Source: a virus
Strand: one strand, 5' to 3'
Virus record (IMG/VR): IMGVR_UViG_2802429369_000001
DNA: 44,853 nt
Positions 3,311-44,853 of the stretch are shown here, one piece after another. A program made the position numbers and the translations under genes. The notes below the pieces were generated by a model. It ran no database searches. It was not told the origin of the DNA and saw nothing but the letters and a program-made list of their open reading frames with translations. Position 1 is the first letter of the stretch. Every line of letters starts with the position of its first letter.

Positions 3311-3352
3311 ACAAACAATAAACCACCCATGACAGGGTGGCTAATTGTAATT
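3311..3352 (-). repeat. Family-2 intergenic element, copy 1
   Basis: mRNA sense is AATTACAATTAG-CCACCC-tgtcat-GGGTGG-TTTATTGTTTGT. Confidence 0.6.
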
Positions 3353-7706: not shown

Positions 7707-7845
7707 GCCCTGACCTCCTCCGTTGTGATACCCAAAGTATGAACCCGCCGTGGCGTGGTGGCTAATGAGTAATTTTTATGTGGTGGTTGGTGTTGGTAGG
7801 TTTTTGCTATTACTGAACCGCGCCCGGCTAGCCATGCCCCGCTAT

Positions 7846-7869
7846 CGTTACGCCCGTTACAGACGTTAC
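7846..7869. repeat. Three CGTTAC hexamers at exact 9-bp spacing (7846, 7855, 7864)
   Basis: The sequence reads cgttacgcccgttacagacgttac. Confidence 0.9.
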
Positions 7870-8027
7870 GCTCCTAATTAAACTTGTACCGCTAAAAAAT
7901 CCAGTAAAATCAAAGCTATGTGACAATAATAACAAAAATAACTAAAAAAGATTTAATTTAATAGAGAGGGGTAGATATTGTCATGCTGACCTATGAGTCT
8001 CTATCTCTATAGGTCTATCTATTGCCG

Positions 8028-8129
8028 CGTACCGTAACAAACGTAACGGTTGTATAAGTTATTGATATTTATCACAAAAACTGGATTTTTGACCGGTACG
8101 CACCGTTACAGCGGTACAGAAACGTAACG
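8028..8129. repeat. Distal hexamer cluster of module A
   Basis: CGTACC 8028, CGTAAC 8033 and 8042 (9-bp spacing), CGGTAC 8094, CGTTAC 8104, CGGTAC 8112, CGTAAC 8123. Confidence 0.85.
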
Positions 8130-8138
8130 GCTAGGCAT

Positions 8139-8161
8139 AAAAAAGCGCCCATTTGGGCGCT
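8139..8161 (-). terminator. Intrinsic terminator of the replication operon
   Basis: GCGCCC-aaat-GGGCGC followed by TTTTTT. Confidence 0.75.
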
Positions 8162-8182: not shown

Positions 8183-10900
8183 TCACAAAAACGAATCCAG
8201 CGGCACACGTATAGCCCGCGTCTGTGATCCGGCGAACCGTTGCGGCGCTGGGCATACATCGGCACCCGGTAGCCGCGACAGTACCCGCCGCCAGCCAGCC
8301 GCCCACGGCGTATCACGAAGCATCCGTTTCAGCTCGTTGTGCGTGTTCGATATGACCAGCAGCCCGCCGTCTACAAACAGGCCATGCCGTGACAGCACCG
8401 CGTTGCAGTCATCGGCGTAGACGTCACCGCTAATTGCCTTCCTACCGCCCGCTGCCATGATGATCTCCGATACCGTGCGCTGGTAGCGGTGCCCGGCGGC
8501 GTCGAATGTGAGTTGTGTTTGCAGTATCGCGTTCAGGCACATGCCTTCGTCAGACACCTCCTCGGATTCTTTGGCTTCATCGAGGTTTATCTTCGATGTC
8601 CAGACACGCGCCTCCTCGATACTGATCTCTCTATCCATAGACAGGCTCACAGCCCCCGCCAGCAGCGTTCCGACCTGATCCCCTATACGTTGACTGCCTA
8701 GCGTCTCTGCAACGGCCTGCGCGAGCGTTTTGGCGTTTTTACGGATAACGGGAATCAGATGGTACGACCGCGCGCGAATCGCAGCGCAGCGCTCAGGCGT
8801 TAGCGTATTACCCACATGCAGCACGAACTCATTAAACCGGGCGATTTCGGCGGCAGTTTTGTCAGGCTGTTTTAGCGACACGACCGTAAACCGCGACTCG
8901 TCAGCGGCCTGACTCAGCGACACGTTCACACTCCCCAGCAGGAACATCGAGCGCATACGAAACGCCATGCCACCGCCACCGCTGGTGCCCTTCACGATTT
9001 CCGCGCTGCCATCGCTCGATGATTGTCGTGCTAGCTCGATAACCGATTTCATGCGTTTCTGCGCGCTGTGATCTTCGGATTCTGCCTCATCGAAAATCAC
9101 CGGGCGCGCATCCTGCTTGAGGTGCTGACGTATCCCGGCCTCAGTGGTGCCGCCCTGCACCATAAGCGCAGACTGCCCAAGCAGGGGCTGAATGATGTTT
9201 TCCTGCACCCACGATTTTCCCGCGCCACGCTGCGCCGTCAGCCATACGTGCGGACGCCACCCGAGCGCCCCGCATATCGGTGCTAGCACCGTCCATCCGG
9301 CCATCGCCCAGCCGTGAAACGGCGTTGACCAGTTGAGCTGCTGGAATAGCTTAAACACTTCGTTAGCCGCGTTATTATCGGCTGGCGGTGCGTCAATCGT
9401 GGACTCCATCGGCCCCTGACGTGTGTAAATAAACCGCGTGTCGTGATCCGCGATGCGCTTAGCCTCACCGTTGACAATCAACCGATCCCCAAGGTGCAGC
9501 ACACTGTTACCGCCGTCATACCACGCGCCGCGACCACGCACGTTACGCAGGCTGTACACGCCACGCGCCTCGCACGCACGCATACACGACGATGCCGCCG
9601 CCTGCCAGTCGGTGCCGGATTTATCCTTTGGGTACGCCATATCCCACCACTCGACGGGTGCCAGTGCCAGCATCTCGGCGGGCGACGTATGGCTGCCCCG
9701 GCGTATCTCGCAGACCTGCTCAGTGCCACGCGGCAAGTAGTAATACATCGCGCCATCAAATCCGAGCGCACGAAACGGCATGCTGGTTTTTTCTACGGCG
9801 GAGGCTGGCTCTGTATCGGGAAAATCGTCCGGCGCTGACGTATCGGCATCATCCGGGCTGCCAGCGGGCGGCAGGTCGTCGGGTGGCATATCAGGCGGTG
9901 GTGCCTCCAATGCAGCAGCCTGGGGTGATTTGACGCGCTCGCGCTTGATGCCGTATTCGTCCGCCAGCGCCTTGACCGCCTTGCCTGCATCGCCGCCGTG
10001 TTCAAATTGGCAAATCAGGTCAAATGCGTTAACCGGGCGACCTGTTTCCTCGCTGCACAGCGGGTCGCTCGCGTGGTGTATCCAGCACGACTGATCACCG
10101 TCGAACATAACAACACCGGGTAGCCCAGTGTTGCTATGCGGACTCAGAAAACGACGACGACCAACGGGCTTGTAGCCTAACCGCTGCAACGTGGCGCGCA
10201 AATCCTCACGACTCAGGCACTCGTCAATAACGCTGGCACCGTGGTGGTCGCGTGGTTCGCGTGGTGGTTTTGGTGGTGGTGTTTGTTCGCGCACCGCCCA
10301 TGGGCATGCGTCCTTAAATTGCGGCTTGAATTTGTCCCATGCTTCCCAGATAGCCAGCAGCCAGTCCGGTGGCGGTGGGAAGTCTTGTCCGGCGGCGGGT
10401 GGCTTGACTAGCCACTCGTAATTTTTCTGCGCCTGATCGTGCCAGCTTGGGGGTAGCACGTCCTGGCGTTGCTTGCCGTCACACGCAGCTCGTAGCTCGA
10501 ATACCGTAAACAGCGTGGCCGCGTCGCGCTTCGGCCAATTCAGCTTTGCATACGGCAACGCCATACCATCAGGCACGCGAAACATAACGCGACGGCCTTT
10601 AGCGCTGCCCTGAATCGTTGGGTAGTGATCCAGCGCGCTACGCGGTATACCGAACTCGTCCAGCACGGTGCCGAACGATTCAGAACAGTCAATATCCAGG
10701 CTGCACATGCGAGACGGCCCCAGCGCGAGGCCCATATTCCAGTCGGGATGCTCACGATAAAACACCTCGGCGGCATCCGGGTCGCTCAATACCTGGTTGC
10801 CCCAATCGTTCGCCGTGGGAAATTTGCGGCCCGGCTCTATTGGCACCAACTGGAAACCATAGCGCGACACGTACTCCCGCGCATATTCATTGATTGTCAT
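8183..10900 (-). CDS. Primase-helicase (prim-pol N-terminal domain plus P-loop SF3-type C-terminal domain)
   Basis: 905 aa. N-terminus YGFQLVPIEPGRKFP...CSLDIDC. Walker A QRGAGKSW and Walker B PVIFDEAE. A proline-rich linker separates the two halves. Confidence 0.8.
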   Translation of the reverse strand: MTINEYAREYVSRYGFQLVPIEPGRKFPTANDWGNQVLSDPDAAEVFYREHPDWNMGLALGPSRMCSLDIDCSESFGTVLDEFGIPRSALDHYPTIQGSAKGRRVMFRVPDGMALPYAKLNWPKRDAATLFTVFELRAACDGKQRQDVLPPSWHDQAQKNYEWLVKPPAAGQDFPPPPDWLLAIWEAWDKFKPQFKDACPWAVREQTPPPKPPREPRDHHGASVIDECLSREDLRATLQRLGYKPVGRRRFLSPHSNTGLPGVVMFDGDQSCWIHHASDPLCSEETGRPVNAFDLICQFEHGGDAGKAVKALADEYGIKRERVKSPQAAALEAPPPDMPPDDLPPAGSPDDADTSAPDDFPDTEPASAVEKTSMPFRALGFDGAMYYYLPRGTEQVCEIRRGSHTSPAEMLALAPVEWWDMAYPKDKSGTDWQAAASSCMRACEARGVYSLRNVRGRGAWYDGGNSVLHLGDRLIVNGEAKRIADHDTRFIYTRQGPMESTIDAPPADNNAANEVFKLFQQLNWSTPFHGWAMAGWTVLAPICGALGWRPHVWLTAQRGAGKSWVQENIIQPLLGQSALMVQGGTTEAGIRQHLKQDARPVIFDEAESEDHSAQKRMKSVIELARQSSSDGSAEIVKGTSGGGGMAFRMRSMFLLGSVNVSLSQAADESRFTVVSLKQPDKTAAEIARFNEFVLHVGNTLTPERCAAIRARSYHLIPVIRKNAKTLAQAVAETLGSQRIGDQVGTLLAGAVSLSMDREISIEEARVWTSKINLDEAKESEEVSDEGMCLNAILQTQLTFDAAGHRYQRTVSEIIMAAGGRKAISGDVYADDCNAVLSRHGLFVDGGLLVISNTHNELKRMLRDTPWAAGWRRVLSRLPGADVCPAPQRFAGSQTRAIRVPLDSFL

Positions 10901-37465: not shown

Positions 37466-37512
37466 CACCAAACAATAGCCCACCCCACCACCTACCCGCT
37501 AATGGTATTTTT
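37466..37512 (-). repeat. Family-2 intergenic element, copy 3 (centre is not a hairpin)
   Basis: mRNA sense is AAAAATACCATTAG-CGGGTAGGTGGTGGGGTGGGC-TATTGTTTGGTG. Confidence 0.55.
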
Positions 37513-40166: not shown

Positions 40167-41453
40167 TTAATCTGGCAGCGTATCGAACTTGGAATCGTCG
40201 GCGCTGTTCGTGGCATCAAGACGCCCACCATTAAGCGCATGGTCAGCCGCTTTAGGCGTTTTGCAGTTACGCGCCATGATGCGCAGTGCGTTAACGTCGA
40301 GCGCTTTGGCTTCGTCTTCGGTCGCCAGCTTGGCCTCTACCACGGTTTCTACCAGGGTGGTTTTTTCAGCTTCGGCAGCGGCTTCTTTCTCGGCGTTAAT
40401 CGCGTCGAGCTTGTCTTGCAGGGGTTTAACTGCATCAGCAATGGCTTGCGCCTGATTCGCTTGCAGTGTTTCGGCCTGCTTGTCGAGCATGGCCTGTAGC
40501 TCTTCAGTCGTCATTTGCGGTTCCTCGGTAGACGTTTGAGAGTTGGTTTGCAGGCCAGCGGCCTCGTGTGGTTTGCCCGGCGTGTTGCCGAACATTTTAG
40601 AAAGCGTGTTTCGAATGGTATTGGTGACGGCTTCCCAGGAAGTCTGGCGTTGAACTTCTTGGCGTGTATCGGAAAGCGTGATAACGCCATCAATAACGCC
40701 ATAGCCGATTTTGTACGCCTTGTTGGTATCCATCTCGAAAAAGATTATCGAGTCAGCATTAAAATCGTCTACATAGCCTTCGCCGTATTTATCTCTAGCA
40801 ACGCGCTGAAGCTCTTGGCGCATATTATCAACGCTGCCGGGTAGCTCTTCGTTAAGCACCAGCTCTGAGTTGACGACTTCGACTTGCTCGCCAGCGGAGT
40901 TGACCATCATGCCAACACCGTCAGCTGTGCTAATGGCGGGCGTCTCGGAAATCAGGATGGCATCGTGATCGAATGCAAAGCTATTGCCCACCCACTCATA
41001 GTCAGCGCCTTCGGGTGCTGGTTCGCGCTGCATCAGCAATCCGGTACTGGTACTAATCGGCTTGCCTTCGTCAATCGCCGCCAGCAGCTTGCGACCGTTC
41101 TCGCTGTTCTGGGCAAACTCAACGTCGATAACCTTATCGGCAAAAACGCGGTCGCCTTCGATGCGTGGGTTGGTATTCCACGCGCCTGCCCAGAAGCCGT
41201 TAATGGCCTCTGGCGTGCGTGCGCTAACAAACTGGTTATTCACCACCGGGTGCCCAAGCGGCGCGGGCAAACCTTCCAACTGCTGGTAGCTAGCCTCTAG
41301 CTCAGCGCGTGGGTAGAAAATGTTGTTTAACACCGTGTCGAACTTTGCCACAGCGCTAGGCACCACAATCACCTCACGGCCATTGCGCTGTTCGCGCTTG
41401 ATGGCAGCGTTGTTGACGCGGTGCTTGATGTTGACGCGGATTTGGTTGGTCAT
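40167..41453 (-). CDS. Scaffold / prohead protease-like protein (DUF2213-like N-terminus, coiled-coil C-terminus)
   Basis: Trimmed to ATG 41453, which has GAGG 4 nt upstream. The C-terminal Ala/Glu/Lys-rich helix is TEELQAMLDKQAETLQANQAQAIADAVKPLQDKLDAINAEKEAAAEAEK. Confidence 0.55.
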   Translation of the reverse strand: MTNQIRVNIKHRVNNAAIKREQRNGREVIVVPSAVAKFDTVLNNIFYPRAELEASYQQLEGLPAPLGHPVVNNQFVSARTPEAINGFWAGAWNTNPRIEGDRVFADKVIDVEFAQNSENGRKLLAAIDEGKPISTSTGLLMQREPAPEGADYEWVGNSFAFDHDAILISETPAISTADGVGMMVNSAGEQVEVVNSELVLNEELPGSVDNMRQELQRVARDKYGEGYVDDFNADSIIFFEMDTNKAYKIGYGVIDGVITLSDTRQEVQRQTSWEAVTNTIRNTLSKMFGNTPGKPHEAAGLQTNSQTSTEEPQMTTEELQAMLDKQAETLQANQAQAIADAVKPLQDKLDAINAEKEAAAEAEKTTLVETVVEAKLATEDEAKALDVNALRIMARNCKTPKAADHALNGGRLDATNSADDSKFDTLPD

Positions 41454-41481
41454 AGCCTCAACCCATAAAATCAATGCCCAC

Positions 41482-41490
41482 AGTATAGCA
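41482..41490 (-). promoter_or_regulatory. TGCTATACT motif, 28 nt before the scaffold gene ATG in module B
   Basis: Plus strand reads agtatagca. The homologous TTCATACT in module A lies at 7736-7743. Confidence 0.5.
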
Positions 41491-41540
41491 CGGCTATCAC
41501 GTCGCGCAAAGCGGTGCAAGCGGCATGGCTCGCCGAGGTG

Positions 41541-41587
41541 CGTTACGCCGAAAAACAGGGTGCCGTTACAAACGTTACAAACGTTAC
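41541..41587. repeat. CGTTAC at 41541, plus three at exact 9-bp spacing (41564, 41573, 41582)
   Basis: The sequence reads ccgttacaaacgttacaaacgttac. Confidence 0.9.
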
Positions 41588-41743
41588 AGCCCTAAGTAAA
41601 CTTGTACCGGTTAAAAATCCAATGGATTCAAAGGCTTGTGACATATATAACAATAATTACAGAAAATAGATATATATATAGAGGTCTGACTCTCTAAGTG
41701 ACTGCTAGTGTTTATGTATATGTGACTATCGTTCGCAAAACAG

Positions 41744-41864
41744 CGTAACAAACGTACCGTTTGTATAAGTATATGATATTTAAAAGAAAACACCCGTTAC
41801 GCTGCAATTTTTAAGCGTTACGCACTTTTGAAACGTAACGCTTGGCCGTTGACGTAAGCGTAAG
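41744..41864. repeat. Distal hexamer cluster of module B
   Basis: CGTAAC 41744 and CGTACC 41753 (9-bp spacing), CGTTAC 41795 and 41816, CGTAAC 41834, CGTAAG 41853 and 41859. Confidence 0.85.
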
Positions 41865-41884
41865 CTGTGCGTATTTCCGCACAC

Positions 41885-41907
41885 AAAAAACCCGCCAGGG
41901 TGGCGGG
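41885..41907 (-). terminator. Intrinsic terminator preceding module B
   Basis: CCCGCC-accct-GGCGGG followed by T6. Confidence 0.75.
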
Positions 41908-41930
41908 TTGGGTGCACGAATGGTGTGCCG

Positions 41931-43644: not shown

Positions 43645-44604
43645 CTATCTATCAGGCTCAAACGCGGCGCGCTGTTTTTCAAGCCTCGCCTCTAACGGCC
43701 CAAGGATGGGCTTTCCATCATCGCCAATCAAAACACTGACTTGTGAGCACTTGCAGTTCACCGATTCACCCCCCTGGCTATAAAACTCCGCCACATCTTG
43801 AGCGGTTAGCACCTGCGAGTGCTTGCGTGCATGGCTCGCTCGGGTAGTTGGACTCAATGCGCTCAGCCACAAGAGCTGCGTGTTAATGCCTAGTCGTTCG
43901 CGTGCGTCTTGGTTTTCATCTCTAGTGGCGCGCCTTAATGCGCTACCTATCTCAGTCCGCGCAATGGTCTCTGCCCTACGCTCAGCAATCCCAAACCGCG
44001 CACGTATATCCTTCGCCACCGTACGCGGATTCAATCCATCCTCAACGCCCTGGCTAAGCACGCGCCCCAAATCGGTAGCCGTGTCGCCGTTGAATGATTC
44101 CATCTGCTCGAAGACACGCGACCGCACCAACGCCACCCGCCGCTGCCACGGCTCCGACGCCAGCACCTGGGTGATCTCCCGCGTGTAGTCATCTGTCAGC
44201 GCCGCAAGTTGCGCGACTGCGGTTCCGGTACCTGCTTCGTAGGCAAGCACCGTTTGCGCGGCCATATAATCCGGTGGCACCTCGATACCCAGTCGGCGGC
44301 GTATCTCCTCGATAATAAGGCGCAGCTCCTCGACGCTAATCAGGTAGTCGTAGCGCGTTTCGTTGACCAAATAGCCCGGCACGCTAGCATTAATCGTAAT
44401 CTCGCGCTTAGGTATCTCTTCGAAACGCTTAAGCACCCATCGGCGAACATCACGCAAGCCGCGTTTTAGGCGGCTGACGGTTTGTTGCTGCAGTCGGGCA
44501 CCGCCAACGGGGTTCTCTGTGTTGCGGGGTAGGGTGGGGTATTTAGGCATTCCGACCACCACACTTGCGCCCACGCTCAGCATCAGCACATAAATAGCGG
44601 TCAT
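43645..44604 (-). CDS. Minor head protein (phage Mu F / SPP1 gp7 family)
   Basis: Contains RRAETIARTEIGSALRRAT and the C-terminal NCKCS motif. The start is uncertain (44604 or 44550). Confidence 0.7.
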   Translation of the reverse strand: MTAIYVLMLSVGASVVVGMPKYPTLPRNTENPVGGARLQQQTVSRLKRGLRDVRRWVLKRFEEIPKREITINASVPGYLVNETRYDYLISVEELRLIIEEIRRRLGIEVPPDYMAAQTVLAYEAGTGTAVAQLAALTDDYTREITQVLASEPWQRRVALVRSRVFEQMESFNGDTATDLGRVLSQGVEDGLNPRTVAKDIRARFGIAERRAETIARTEIGSALRRATRDENQDARERLGINTQLLWLSALSPTTRASHARKHSQVLTAQDVAEFYSQGGESVNCKCSQVSVLIGDDGKPILGPLEARLEKQRAAFEPDR

Positions 44605-44728: not shown

Positions 44729-44838
44729 ACCATCCCCTTAGGCCGCATATCCAGCCACTTCATCTGCAAATACCACTGAAACGCAGCCACCTCTTGGTAT
44801 TTGGCGGTTTCGTACCAGTGTTGGTGTGTTTCGGTCAT
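44725..44838 (-). CDS. Small ORF (37 aa) lying mostly in the terminal repeat and spanning the circular junction
   Basis: The same ATG occurs at 84 in the left repeat copy, where it overlaps the stop of the DUF551-like gene (ATGA). Translation is MTETHQHWYETAKYQEVAAFQWYLQMKWLDMRPKGMV. Confidence 0.4.
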   Translation of the reverse strand: MTETHQHWYETAKYQEVAAFQWYLQMKWLDMRPKGMV

Positions 44839-44853
44839 TGTGGTGGCTCCGGA
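44755..44853. repeat. Second copy of the 99-bp terminal repeat
   Basis: Identical to 1-99. Confidence 0.95.

Follow-up and report, generated by a model that had tools for sequence, protein, structure and literature searches.

A phage genome that carries one non-coding architecture twice, the second time among its head genes, raises the question of what the two copies are for. The window, by which we mean the whole stretch of DNA analyzed (44,853 nucleotides; IMG/VR record IMGVR_UViG_2802429369_000001), represents a phage genome of ~44.75 kb in a circular or terminally redundant assembly, with positions 1-99 identical to 44755-44853. The look-alike modules, each ~0.4 kb in length, are module A (7730-8160) and module B (41454-41930), with B a further copy of the A cassette that has the same orientation. 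Because the two ends coincide, the modules lie ~11 kb apart on the circular map when measured across the junction, besides 33.7 kb the other way.

Both modules belong to a long leftward unit. It starts with genes for a DEAD helicase, a VRR-NUC nuclease, and a Prim-Pol-helicase (8183-10900, minus strand), followed by module A and then by small genes, the small terminase, an HNH gene, the large terminase, and the portal. After the portal come a head morphogenesis gene of the Mu F/SPP1 gp7 family (43645-44604, minus strand; assigned from annotation and from the JGI names of homologues), further small genes, and module B. The first gene downstream of B encodes a 428-aa protein of PHROG 760 in the scaffold/protease position (40167-41453, minus strand) and is followed by head decoration, DUF6260 capsid, and tail genes; module B is therefore flanked by the gp7-family gene, with its small ORFs, on one side and the scaffold-like gene on the other. 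In a rightward unit lie genes for a PD-(D/E)XK exonuclease, SSB, a methylase, an SNF2-type helicase, a dUTPase, and other proteins. Besides the Prim-Pol-helicase, neither the ORF list nor the annotation of the genome contains an ORF of the size of a replicative DNA polymerase.

In the direction of transcription, an intrinsic terminator comes first in each module, followed by clustered repeats of the CGTWAC(G) type that occur in both orientations. Then come a block holding an IHF consensus and two GTTAC spaced 9 bp apart, an AT-rich core of ~150 bp, a conserved block, and three GTAACG in 9-bp phase; the promoter region of the next operon begins 60-100 nt beyond these last repeats. In module A, the terminator of the primase operon forms the left edge (8134-8161, minus strand; AGCGCCCAAATGGGCGCT then TTTTTATG, with the hairpin and T-run at 8161-8144). 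The terminator-proximal cluster (8094-8129, minus strand) comprises CGGTAC at 8094 and 8112, CGTTAC at 8104, and CGTAAC at 8123. It is followed by a 39-nt block (8033-8071, minus strand) that holds the two GTTAC and a perfect IHF consensus (WATCAANNNNTTR, 8055-8067), by the AT-rich core (7874-8023), and by the promoter-proximal element (7846-7903, minus strand), in which CGTTAC at 7846, 7855, and 7864 accompanies a 31-nt block (7873-7903). A promoter-like element common to all cassette types described below (7728-7784, minus strand) is made up of an A-rich tract, ATTAGCC, a dyad spacer, and CATACT.

Module B follows the same plan. Its terminator (41879-41909, minus strand; AACCCGCCACCCTGGCGGGTT then TTTTGTGTGC, hairpin and T-run at 41909-41889) marks the left, upstream edge. 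The terminator-proximal cluster (41795-41864, minus strand) contains CGTTAC at 41795 and 41816, CGTAAC at 41834, and CGTAAG at 41853 and 41859, as well as the palindrome AGCGTTACG...CGTAACGCT. Next come the 39-nt block (41744-41782, minus strand), identical to its counterpart in A at 34 of 39 positions and with an IHF-like site that has one mismatch (41766-41778, minus strand), the AT-rich core (41640-41789), and the promoter-proximal element (41541-41621, minus strand), with CGTTAC at 41564, 41573, and 41582 in 9-bp phase, one more at 41541, and a 31-nt block (41591-41621) that matches A at 28 of 31 positions. The sigma-70-type promoter of the head operon, read from the sequence, lies at 41474-41509 (minus strand). 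It has the form TTGCGC, 16 nt, TG-n-TATACT (TTGCGC-16 nt-TGCTATACT) and is near consensus with an extended -10. The first-pass annotation had drawn B in much this way, and our reanalysis recovers each of the elements that it named, including the terminator hairpin with its T-run, the hexamers, both shared blocks, the IHF-like site, three GTGAC (41638, 41698, and 41722), a total of 11 GTNAC, and the -10-like sequence TGCTATACTGTGGGCAT at 41474-41490 on the minus strand. A further CGTAAC is found in module B at 41744.

The resemblance of the two modules reflects homology, as had been claimed. MAFFT aligns A and B at ~73% identity over a core of ~300 bp, and their local alignment score of 83 compares with a maximum of 17 in 300 shuffles and a maximum of 14 against every other 400-bp segment of the genome. 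The repeats are concentrated here: the genome has 32 CGTTAC/GTAACG sites, of which 13 fall within the two modules (637 bp), so that the modules are enriched 47-fold (Poisson P = 6e-18). They are also preferentially conserved, since across five B orthologues 59 of 76 hexamer positions are invariant, against 159 of 258 positions elsewhere (p = 0.0095); the earlier suggestion that blocks and repeats have been selectively retained is thereby supported.

The AT-rich cores stand out equally by their physical properties. Nearest-neighbor calculations in windows of 60, 100, and 150 bp rank the core of A as the least stable duplex segment of the genome (z = 4.3-4.5) and the core of B as the second least stable, and both are candidate DNA unwinding elements. 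IHF-consensus sites occur at homologous positions in A and B. Repeat arrays flanking an easily melted core, combined with IHF sites, make up by analogy the anatomy of an iteron-type origin; the 9-bp phase of the repeats, which is shorter than one helical turn, counts against this reading.

Module A begins directly after the terminator of the gene for the 905-aa Prim-Pol-helicase, the presumed origin-binding initiator, in which Pfam places Prim-Pol at residues 7-180 and PHROG a "DNA primase" at 326-905. The protein has 827 homologues, many of them on phage contigs of 40-46 kb. Mosaic relatives, whose flanking genes are 74-98% identical, carry at position A one of three unrelated repeat families, each beside a different, non-homologous Prim-Pol-helicase. 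Type 1, that of the window phage, combines CGTWAC repeats with the 905-aa protein. Type 2 combines GGATAGCA / CTAAGCAG repeats with a protein of 763 aa (Prim-Pol, PriCT_2, and DUF3987), and type 3 combines GGTGATTTT repeats with a protein of 665 aa (Prim-Pol, PriCT_2, and AAA_25) that is RSF1010-RepA-like (E = 2e-6). Beyond the Prim-Pol/PriCT Pfam domains, no similarity is detectable among the three helicase types. When a type-2 genome is compared with a type-3 genome, the non-homologous block consists of exactly the endonuclease-like gene, the helicase gene, and the repeat module, with homology on both sides. The Prim-Pol-helicase gene and this neighboring endonuclease-like gene are the only genes that co-vary with the cassette.

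Within type 1, the repeats change along with the helicase, as expected of the co-evolution of an initiator with its iterons at an origin. Orthologues of the 905-aa protein with 76-79% identity retain CGTWAC/GGTAC-type repeats, whereas those with 51-62% identity have GGGACG (L198), GGAACG (L199), or GCGGGC/CCGCAA (L200) in place of CGTWAC; the order of terminator, repeats, AT core, and repeats directly after the gene is kept in this more divergent group. Among 24 more distant genomic relatives, approximately 11 show an over-represented hexamer in the 500 bp after the gene, most commonly GGTAAC. Helicase residues 761-840 diverge most in the orthologues with changed hexamers. A sequence search of the helicase C terminus against the PDB was empty, and AF2 models of the C-terminal 190 aa and 100 aa (pLDDT 93) gave no significant Foldseek match to a winged-helix or other DNA-binding fold; the best PDB matches were ScpB, the DNA-binding domains of IRF/HSF, and RepE, all with E > 0.5 and TM <= 0.41.

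How regularly does the second copy occur? A homotypic type-1 copy is present in the window phage, in L158 (a very abundant lineage), in L234 (90.5% identical to the window phage in A and 93% in B), in L193 (helicase 79% and portal 56% identical to those of the window phage), and in L196, where it lies elsewhere, upstream of the terminase genes. A homotypic type-2 second copy occurs in L160/L165 and L169, so that two unrelated cassette families, types 1 and 2, have each put a copy into the same slot. The full architecture, including the unstable core, is present in every B. Concerted evolution of A and B is seen within genomes. L193-A has its nearest match in L193-B (67% overall and 78% in the variable core), with only 58% identity to A of the window phage; the two L193 modules share lineage-specific changes, such as GTTACGAACGGTACG where the window phage has GTTACGTTTGTTACG; and L004-B contains a core segment like that of A in the window phage. 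These patterns would point to gene conversion, to a common binding partner, or to both.

Matching of the two copies is not strict, and their pairing is not universal. Heterotypic genomes are known with a type-2 cassette at A and a type-1 cassette at B (A2/B1; three assemblies, L162, L178, and L194) and with type 3 at A and type 1 at B (A3/B1; L164), and they rule out a rule of strict A/B type matching. Taken alone, the association of A types with B types lacks statistical significance at approximately seven independent genomes. The gene after B in the A2/B1 hybrid has a product 95% identical to its counterpart in the window phage, which suggests recent recombination. Among the hybrid genomes are IMGVR_UViG_3300030392_000429 and TARA_R100000306_G_C4382503_1. 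If B serves the resident initiator, such mismatches are unexpected, save where B can be dispensed with or the genomes are recent recombinants. That every phage of this kind has two copies is ruled out by L232 and L200/L233: L232, whose helicase is 77% identical to that of the window phage, carries A, but its B slot is empty and 21 kb of its sequence contain no second copy, and the L200 genome has none in the 30 kb seen. L166 likewise has no cassette at B. Absence and mismatch together point to dispensability, and B is apparently an accessory element rather than an indispensable one.

The exchange of cassettes also defines where they end. Relatives with flanking genes in the same range of identity sometimes hold a different cassette in the same slots, and blastn homology with L012, L016, and L149, which have a type-2 cassette at B, stops at 41525 and restarts at 41883. 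The exchangeable cassette of module B therefore spans 41526-41882 (minus strand) and is replaced in type-2 relatives by a non-homologous cassette of the same architecture; its boundaries fall just after the T-run of the terminator and ~55 nt upstream of the -10. In the B-less relatives L010/L166 and L232, the promoter (…GATAGCC..TGCTATACT/TATAAT) is kept directly behind the terminator. Position A gives the same picture: homology ends at 7779, which leaves the promoter-like element at 7728-7784 outside the exchangeable cassette (boundary 7779/7780). The downstream promoter does not travel with the repeat array and apparently does not depend on it, being conserved without the array in L010/L166 and L232. 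Since the promoter is retained where the module is missing, and since the edges of the cassette exclude it, the repeats are unlikely to be control sites for these promoters.

This bears directly on the interpretation preferred in the first-pass annotation, in which the modules are upstream control regions, arrays for an activator or repressor, through which one phage transcription factor co-regulates two late operons. Part of it is sound: each module does have an intrinsic terminator on one side and the opening gene of the next operon on the other, both combine clustered short repeats with IHF-like sites, and the assumption of one sequence-specific factor for the pair is reasonable. In principle, binding of an initiator to B could influence the neighboring promoter as well. 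As an account of the modules, transcriptional control is nevertheless weak, and we regard it as improbable. The promoter at B is close to consensus and unchanged in relatives that lack the module, the cassette boundaries leave it out, the cassette co-varies with a replication gene and its endonuclease-like neighbor alone, the second copy in L196 precedes a different operon, and ~13 sites with a 150-bp AT core would be atypical of a promoter UAS. A role as packaging (pac) or partition/centromere-like sites might be suggested by the position of A upstream of the terminase region and by the likeness to P1 parS, in which repeat arrays are likewise combined with an IHF site. Yet the same cassette occurs with different terminases and the same terminase with different cassettes (the large terminases of L158 and L160 are 100% identical, with a type 1 and a type 2 cassette, respectively), and the annotated ORFs include no ParA/ParB-like gene; we give this reading very little credence. 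It is just as hard to believe in small non-coding RNAs or a short peptide as products of the modules. They do contain conserved non-coding blocks and, at 41611-41793, an ORF of 60 codons, and module A folds as single-stranded DNA better than its shuffles (z = -3.8). Module B, however, folds no better than shuffles (z = -1.5), neither the window nor four related loci contain an Rfam family or tRNA/tmRNA, the internal sigma-70 promoters amount to single weak matches that are not conserved between A and B, and the sequences of type-2 and type-3 cassettes are unrelated. As a coding sequence the ORF itself is ruled out, because indels of 5 nt and 2 nt in the core leave A and B no common reading frame.

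The remaining alternatives accept A as an origin and differ in what they make of B. It may be a functionless passenger, a duplicated origin fragment that settled in a permissive intergenic slot and is shuffled by homologous recombination at the terminator and promoter flanks. The heavy mosaicism of these genomes, the absence of B from some relatives and its mismatch in others, and the 95% protein identity at the B1 flank of the hybrid are all compatible with such a history. We nonetheless consider it unlikely: unrelated cassettes of types 1 and 2 occupy the same slot, a third lineage (L196) has its copy elsewhere, the hexamers of B are preferentially conserved, lineage-specific changes are common to A and B, and no B has lost the architecture or the unstable core. 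A mismatched B (A2/B1 or A3/B1) might instead be a decoy that titrates the initiator of a rival phage and so serves as a weapon in competition between phages; decoys would in that case arise by recombination from homotypic copies as the ancestral state. Plasmid-borne "Per" origin decoys are known from dairy phages. The decoy reading rests on these phages recombining and evidently co-infecting, and we think it distinctly improbable. In a milder version, B could be a programmed, initiator-bound fork barrier that sets the switch from theta replication to concatemer synthesis; if true, this would extend the SPP1 model to Prim-Pol-helicase phages.

We favor the reading in which A is an iteron-type origin and B an accessory origin-like site for the same initiator, and give it a probability of roughly 0.62. 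Very probably, the Prim-Pol-helicase has its cognate replication origin in the adjacent module A; in module B the same initiator most likely has a second site, which would serve as an auxiliary origin or as a fork barrier. The first-pass annotation had thought two origin-like copies the more unusual possibility, but it is this possibility that fits best, and it has a precedent in oriL and oriR of phage SPP1 (PMC6316719). In the proposed scheme, the two CGTWAC(G) clusters of A, flanking the AT-rich unwinding element with its IHF-like sites, would be specific to the 905-aa Prim-Pol-helicase. This enzyme would attach to the repeats, open the AT core, and prime synthesis. Recruitment of the host replisome would follow, a step that we propose because the phage has no further gene of the size of a replicative DNA polymerase. 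B, inserted between the terminator and the promoter of the scaffold/capsid operon, would provide a second landing site for the initiator. Service as an auxiliary origin is one option; alternatively, as proposed for SPP1 oriR, the initiator-bound site may stall a fork arriving from A and so lead to recombination-dependent concatemer synthesis. A matching toolkit is encoded in the genome, namely the PD-(D/E)XK exonuclease, SSB, and the VRR-NUC resolvase-like nuclease. The identity of the repeat-binding protein, the firing of either site, and the function of B are points that we infer from comparative sequence data.

A twin-origin arrangement is already known from SPP1, so this is not a new kind of system. 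In SPP1, oriL and oriR are ~13 kb apart on the circular map, and each comprises direct repeats together with an AT-rich unwinding element (PMC6316719, PMC3485210); oriL is located at the initiator gene, and oriR in a segment that interrupts the head-assembly genes and has transcription signals on either side (PMC6316719). In the proposed model, fork stalling by the oriR-bound initiator brings about recombination-dependent rolling-circle synthesis, a switch in which an exonuclease, an annealing protein, SSB, and a resolvase take part (PMC6316719, PMC3485210). The parallels are close. Both phages are pac-type siphoviruses of ~44 kb, the paired regions are 11 kb apart here and ~13 kb apart in SPP1, the second site of the window phage follows the gp7 (Mu F) gene among the head genes, between the terminator at 41879-41909 and the promoter at 41474-41509, and both phages encode an exonuclease, SSB, and a resolvase or resolvase-like nuclease. 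The differences are equally clear. SPP1 oriL lies inside gene 38, whereas module A is intergenic and downstream of its gene; SPP1 uses the gp38 initiator with a separate loader and a DnaB-type helicase, and the window phage would rely on one polypeptide, the Prim-Pol-helicase; there is no relationship in sequence, and the host here is presumably Gram-negative/marine; and the second copy is demonstrably optional and exchangeable in the phages studied here. Because the initiator is a Prim-Pol-helicase and A is intergenic, we regard the window phage as analogous to the SPP1 replicon family and not as a member of it.

Three further systems share parts of the arrangement. Classical iteron origins, such as lambda ori and those of plasmids RK2, R6K, and F, have clustered initiator-binding repeats beside an AT-rich unwinding element with IHF sites. 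As there, the repeats in our phages co-evolve with the initiator and the pair is exchanged as a module. The units themselves differ, being hexamers at 9-bp spacing instead of iterons of 17-22 bp at helical phase, and the candidate initiator is not a winged-helix protein of the Rep/O type. Satellite phage P4 carries crr, a second repeat-bearing cis element located kilobases from ori and required in cis. Its alpha protein binds the origin repeats (PMC2777425, PMC4234260). P4 therefore resembles the window phage in combining a single multifunctional primase-helicase initiator (putative in our case) with a distant second repeat element. Alpha, however, has a Toprim (DnaG-type) primase where the window phage has Prim-Pol, a winged-helix domain could not be demonstrated in the helicase studied here, and crr is needed in cis, whereas B is dispensable in relatives (L232 lacks it and has a helicase of the same family). 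The origin of plasmid pRN1 has been defined experimentally within 166 bp downstream of the prim-pol-helicase gene (PMC4234260). This ORF904-type system and the window phage have in common the fusion of Prim-Pol to a helicase and a cis element, essential in pRN1 and putatively module A here, that is placed in non-coding DNA right after the gene and its terminator (PMC4234260). The pRN1 element is a stem-loop of ~100 nt without iterons, in contrast to the iteron arrays and AT core described here, and folding would support a comparably long stem-loop in A only (z = -3.8, against -1.5 for B).

To our knowledge, annotation of uncultured phages hardly ever includes their replication origins. The features assembled here suggest a recipe for finding them from sequence, namely a repeat array and the least stable duplex immediately behind a Prim-Pol-helicase gene, the repeat and the protein having evolved together. 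If our preferred reading of A and B holds, a peculiarity of SPP1, the second origin-like site among head genes, is repeated in marine phages that are unrelated to it and have another class of initiator, and this recurrence would suggest that such sites have a general function, for example in timing the switch to concatemer synthesis. The homotypic, heterotypic, and B-less genomes form a natural comparative series on the role of the second origin. Initiator/origin cassettes flanked by homing-endonuclease-like genes are, in addition, an example of the exchange of replication modules between phages.

Neither module has a blastn match among 50,697 GenBank phages, an exact-pattern scan of species-representative genomes found nothing, and the window phage is absent from the bacterial genomes searched. 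A locus search seeded with the large terminase was uninformative, close relatives having different terminases, and a search with the 16-nt pattern CGTAACAAACGTAMCG returned mostly chance matches, which were filtered by repeat counts. The relatives come from marine metagenomes, many of them from Tara Oceans, whose samples include L188-L192 and L234, and identical or near-identical proteins carry the labels Herbaspirillum sp. and Methylophaga sp. MAG.

On sequence comparison, the phages related to the window are extremely mosaic. Two relatives, L158 and L160, carry unrelated replication modules (types 1 and 2, respectively, of the origin-type cassettes, each of which comes with its own Prim-Pol-helicase) while sharing 100% identity in the large terminase and neighboring genes. 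The capsid and decoration genes of the window are only 33 to 37% identical to the versions in relatives with which it shares 90% identical portals. Directly upstream of the type 2 and type 3 Prim-Pol-helicase genes, the exchanged block contains an endonuclease-like gene, either HNH or T5orf172/GIY-YIG-like (L160, 828 through 1526; L162, 1455 through 1994; L164, 803 through 1294); this location suggests that swapping of the initiator/origin cassette is assisted by a homing endonuclease. In the window itself, the small and large terminase genes are separated by an HNH endonuclease gene (4630 through 5190, minus strand) that overlaps the start of the large terminase open reading frame; in relatives, this position is occupied by a GIY-YIG gene or left empty. 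An N6/N4 DNA methyltransferase is also phage-encoded (15478 through 16482, plus strand).

The ends of the window overlap exactly over 99 bp (1 through 99 = 44755 through 44853); the assembly is therefore circular or terminally redundant, with a length of about 44,754 bp, and the homologous noncoding modules A (7730 through 8160) and B (41454 through 41930) lie ∼11 kb apart when measured across the junction.

Intergenic elements with a common layout occur on the minus strand at 3312 through 3363, 7733 through 7784, and 43575 through 43626 (and at 37498 through 37547); each runs from an A-rich tract through ATTAGCC, an 18-nt GC-rich dyad, and TATTGT/CATACT to TTGGGTAT. We read these as promoter-like sites, in which TTAGCC would be the −35 element, separated from the −10 element by an 18-nt hairpin-forming spacer. 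They overlap terminator-like hairpins, and the TTCATACTTTGGGTAT of module A cited in the first-pass annotation is a member of this family. The module B promoter (41474 through 41509, minus strand) falls outside it, being of a different, near-consensus extended −10 type. Just past the terminator upstream of module B is a second small hairpin, TGTGCG-GAAATA-CGCACA (41866 through 41883, minus strand); the stem change in L009 gives a G-U pair on the transcribed strand only, which hints at a structure at the RNA level.

Other sites were found in the relatives. The more distant L237 has about 13 copies of AAGCGAGCCA at a spacing of roughly 37 nt (about 1900 through 2400), within an 868-bp gap preceding a 316-aa gene; this array, possibly a binding array of a different type, goes unreported by Tandem Repeats Finder because the spacers differ. 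A 620-bp intergenic gap in L196 contains a tRNA-like sequence (16952 through 17023) scoring 27.6 bits against Rfam RF00005, below the gathering score of 29, and ARAGORN calls no tRNA there. In L200, TTATCCACA (7470 through 7480) matches the Escherichia coli-type DnaA box consensus; it is flanked by the repeat cluster on one side and the AT-rich core on the other, within an A-type, origin-like region with GCGGGC-type repeats.
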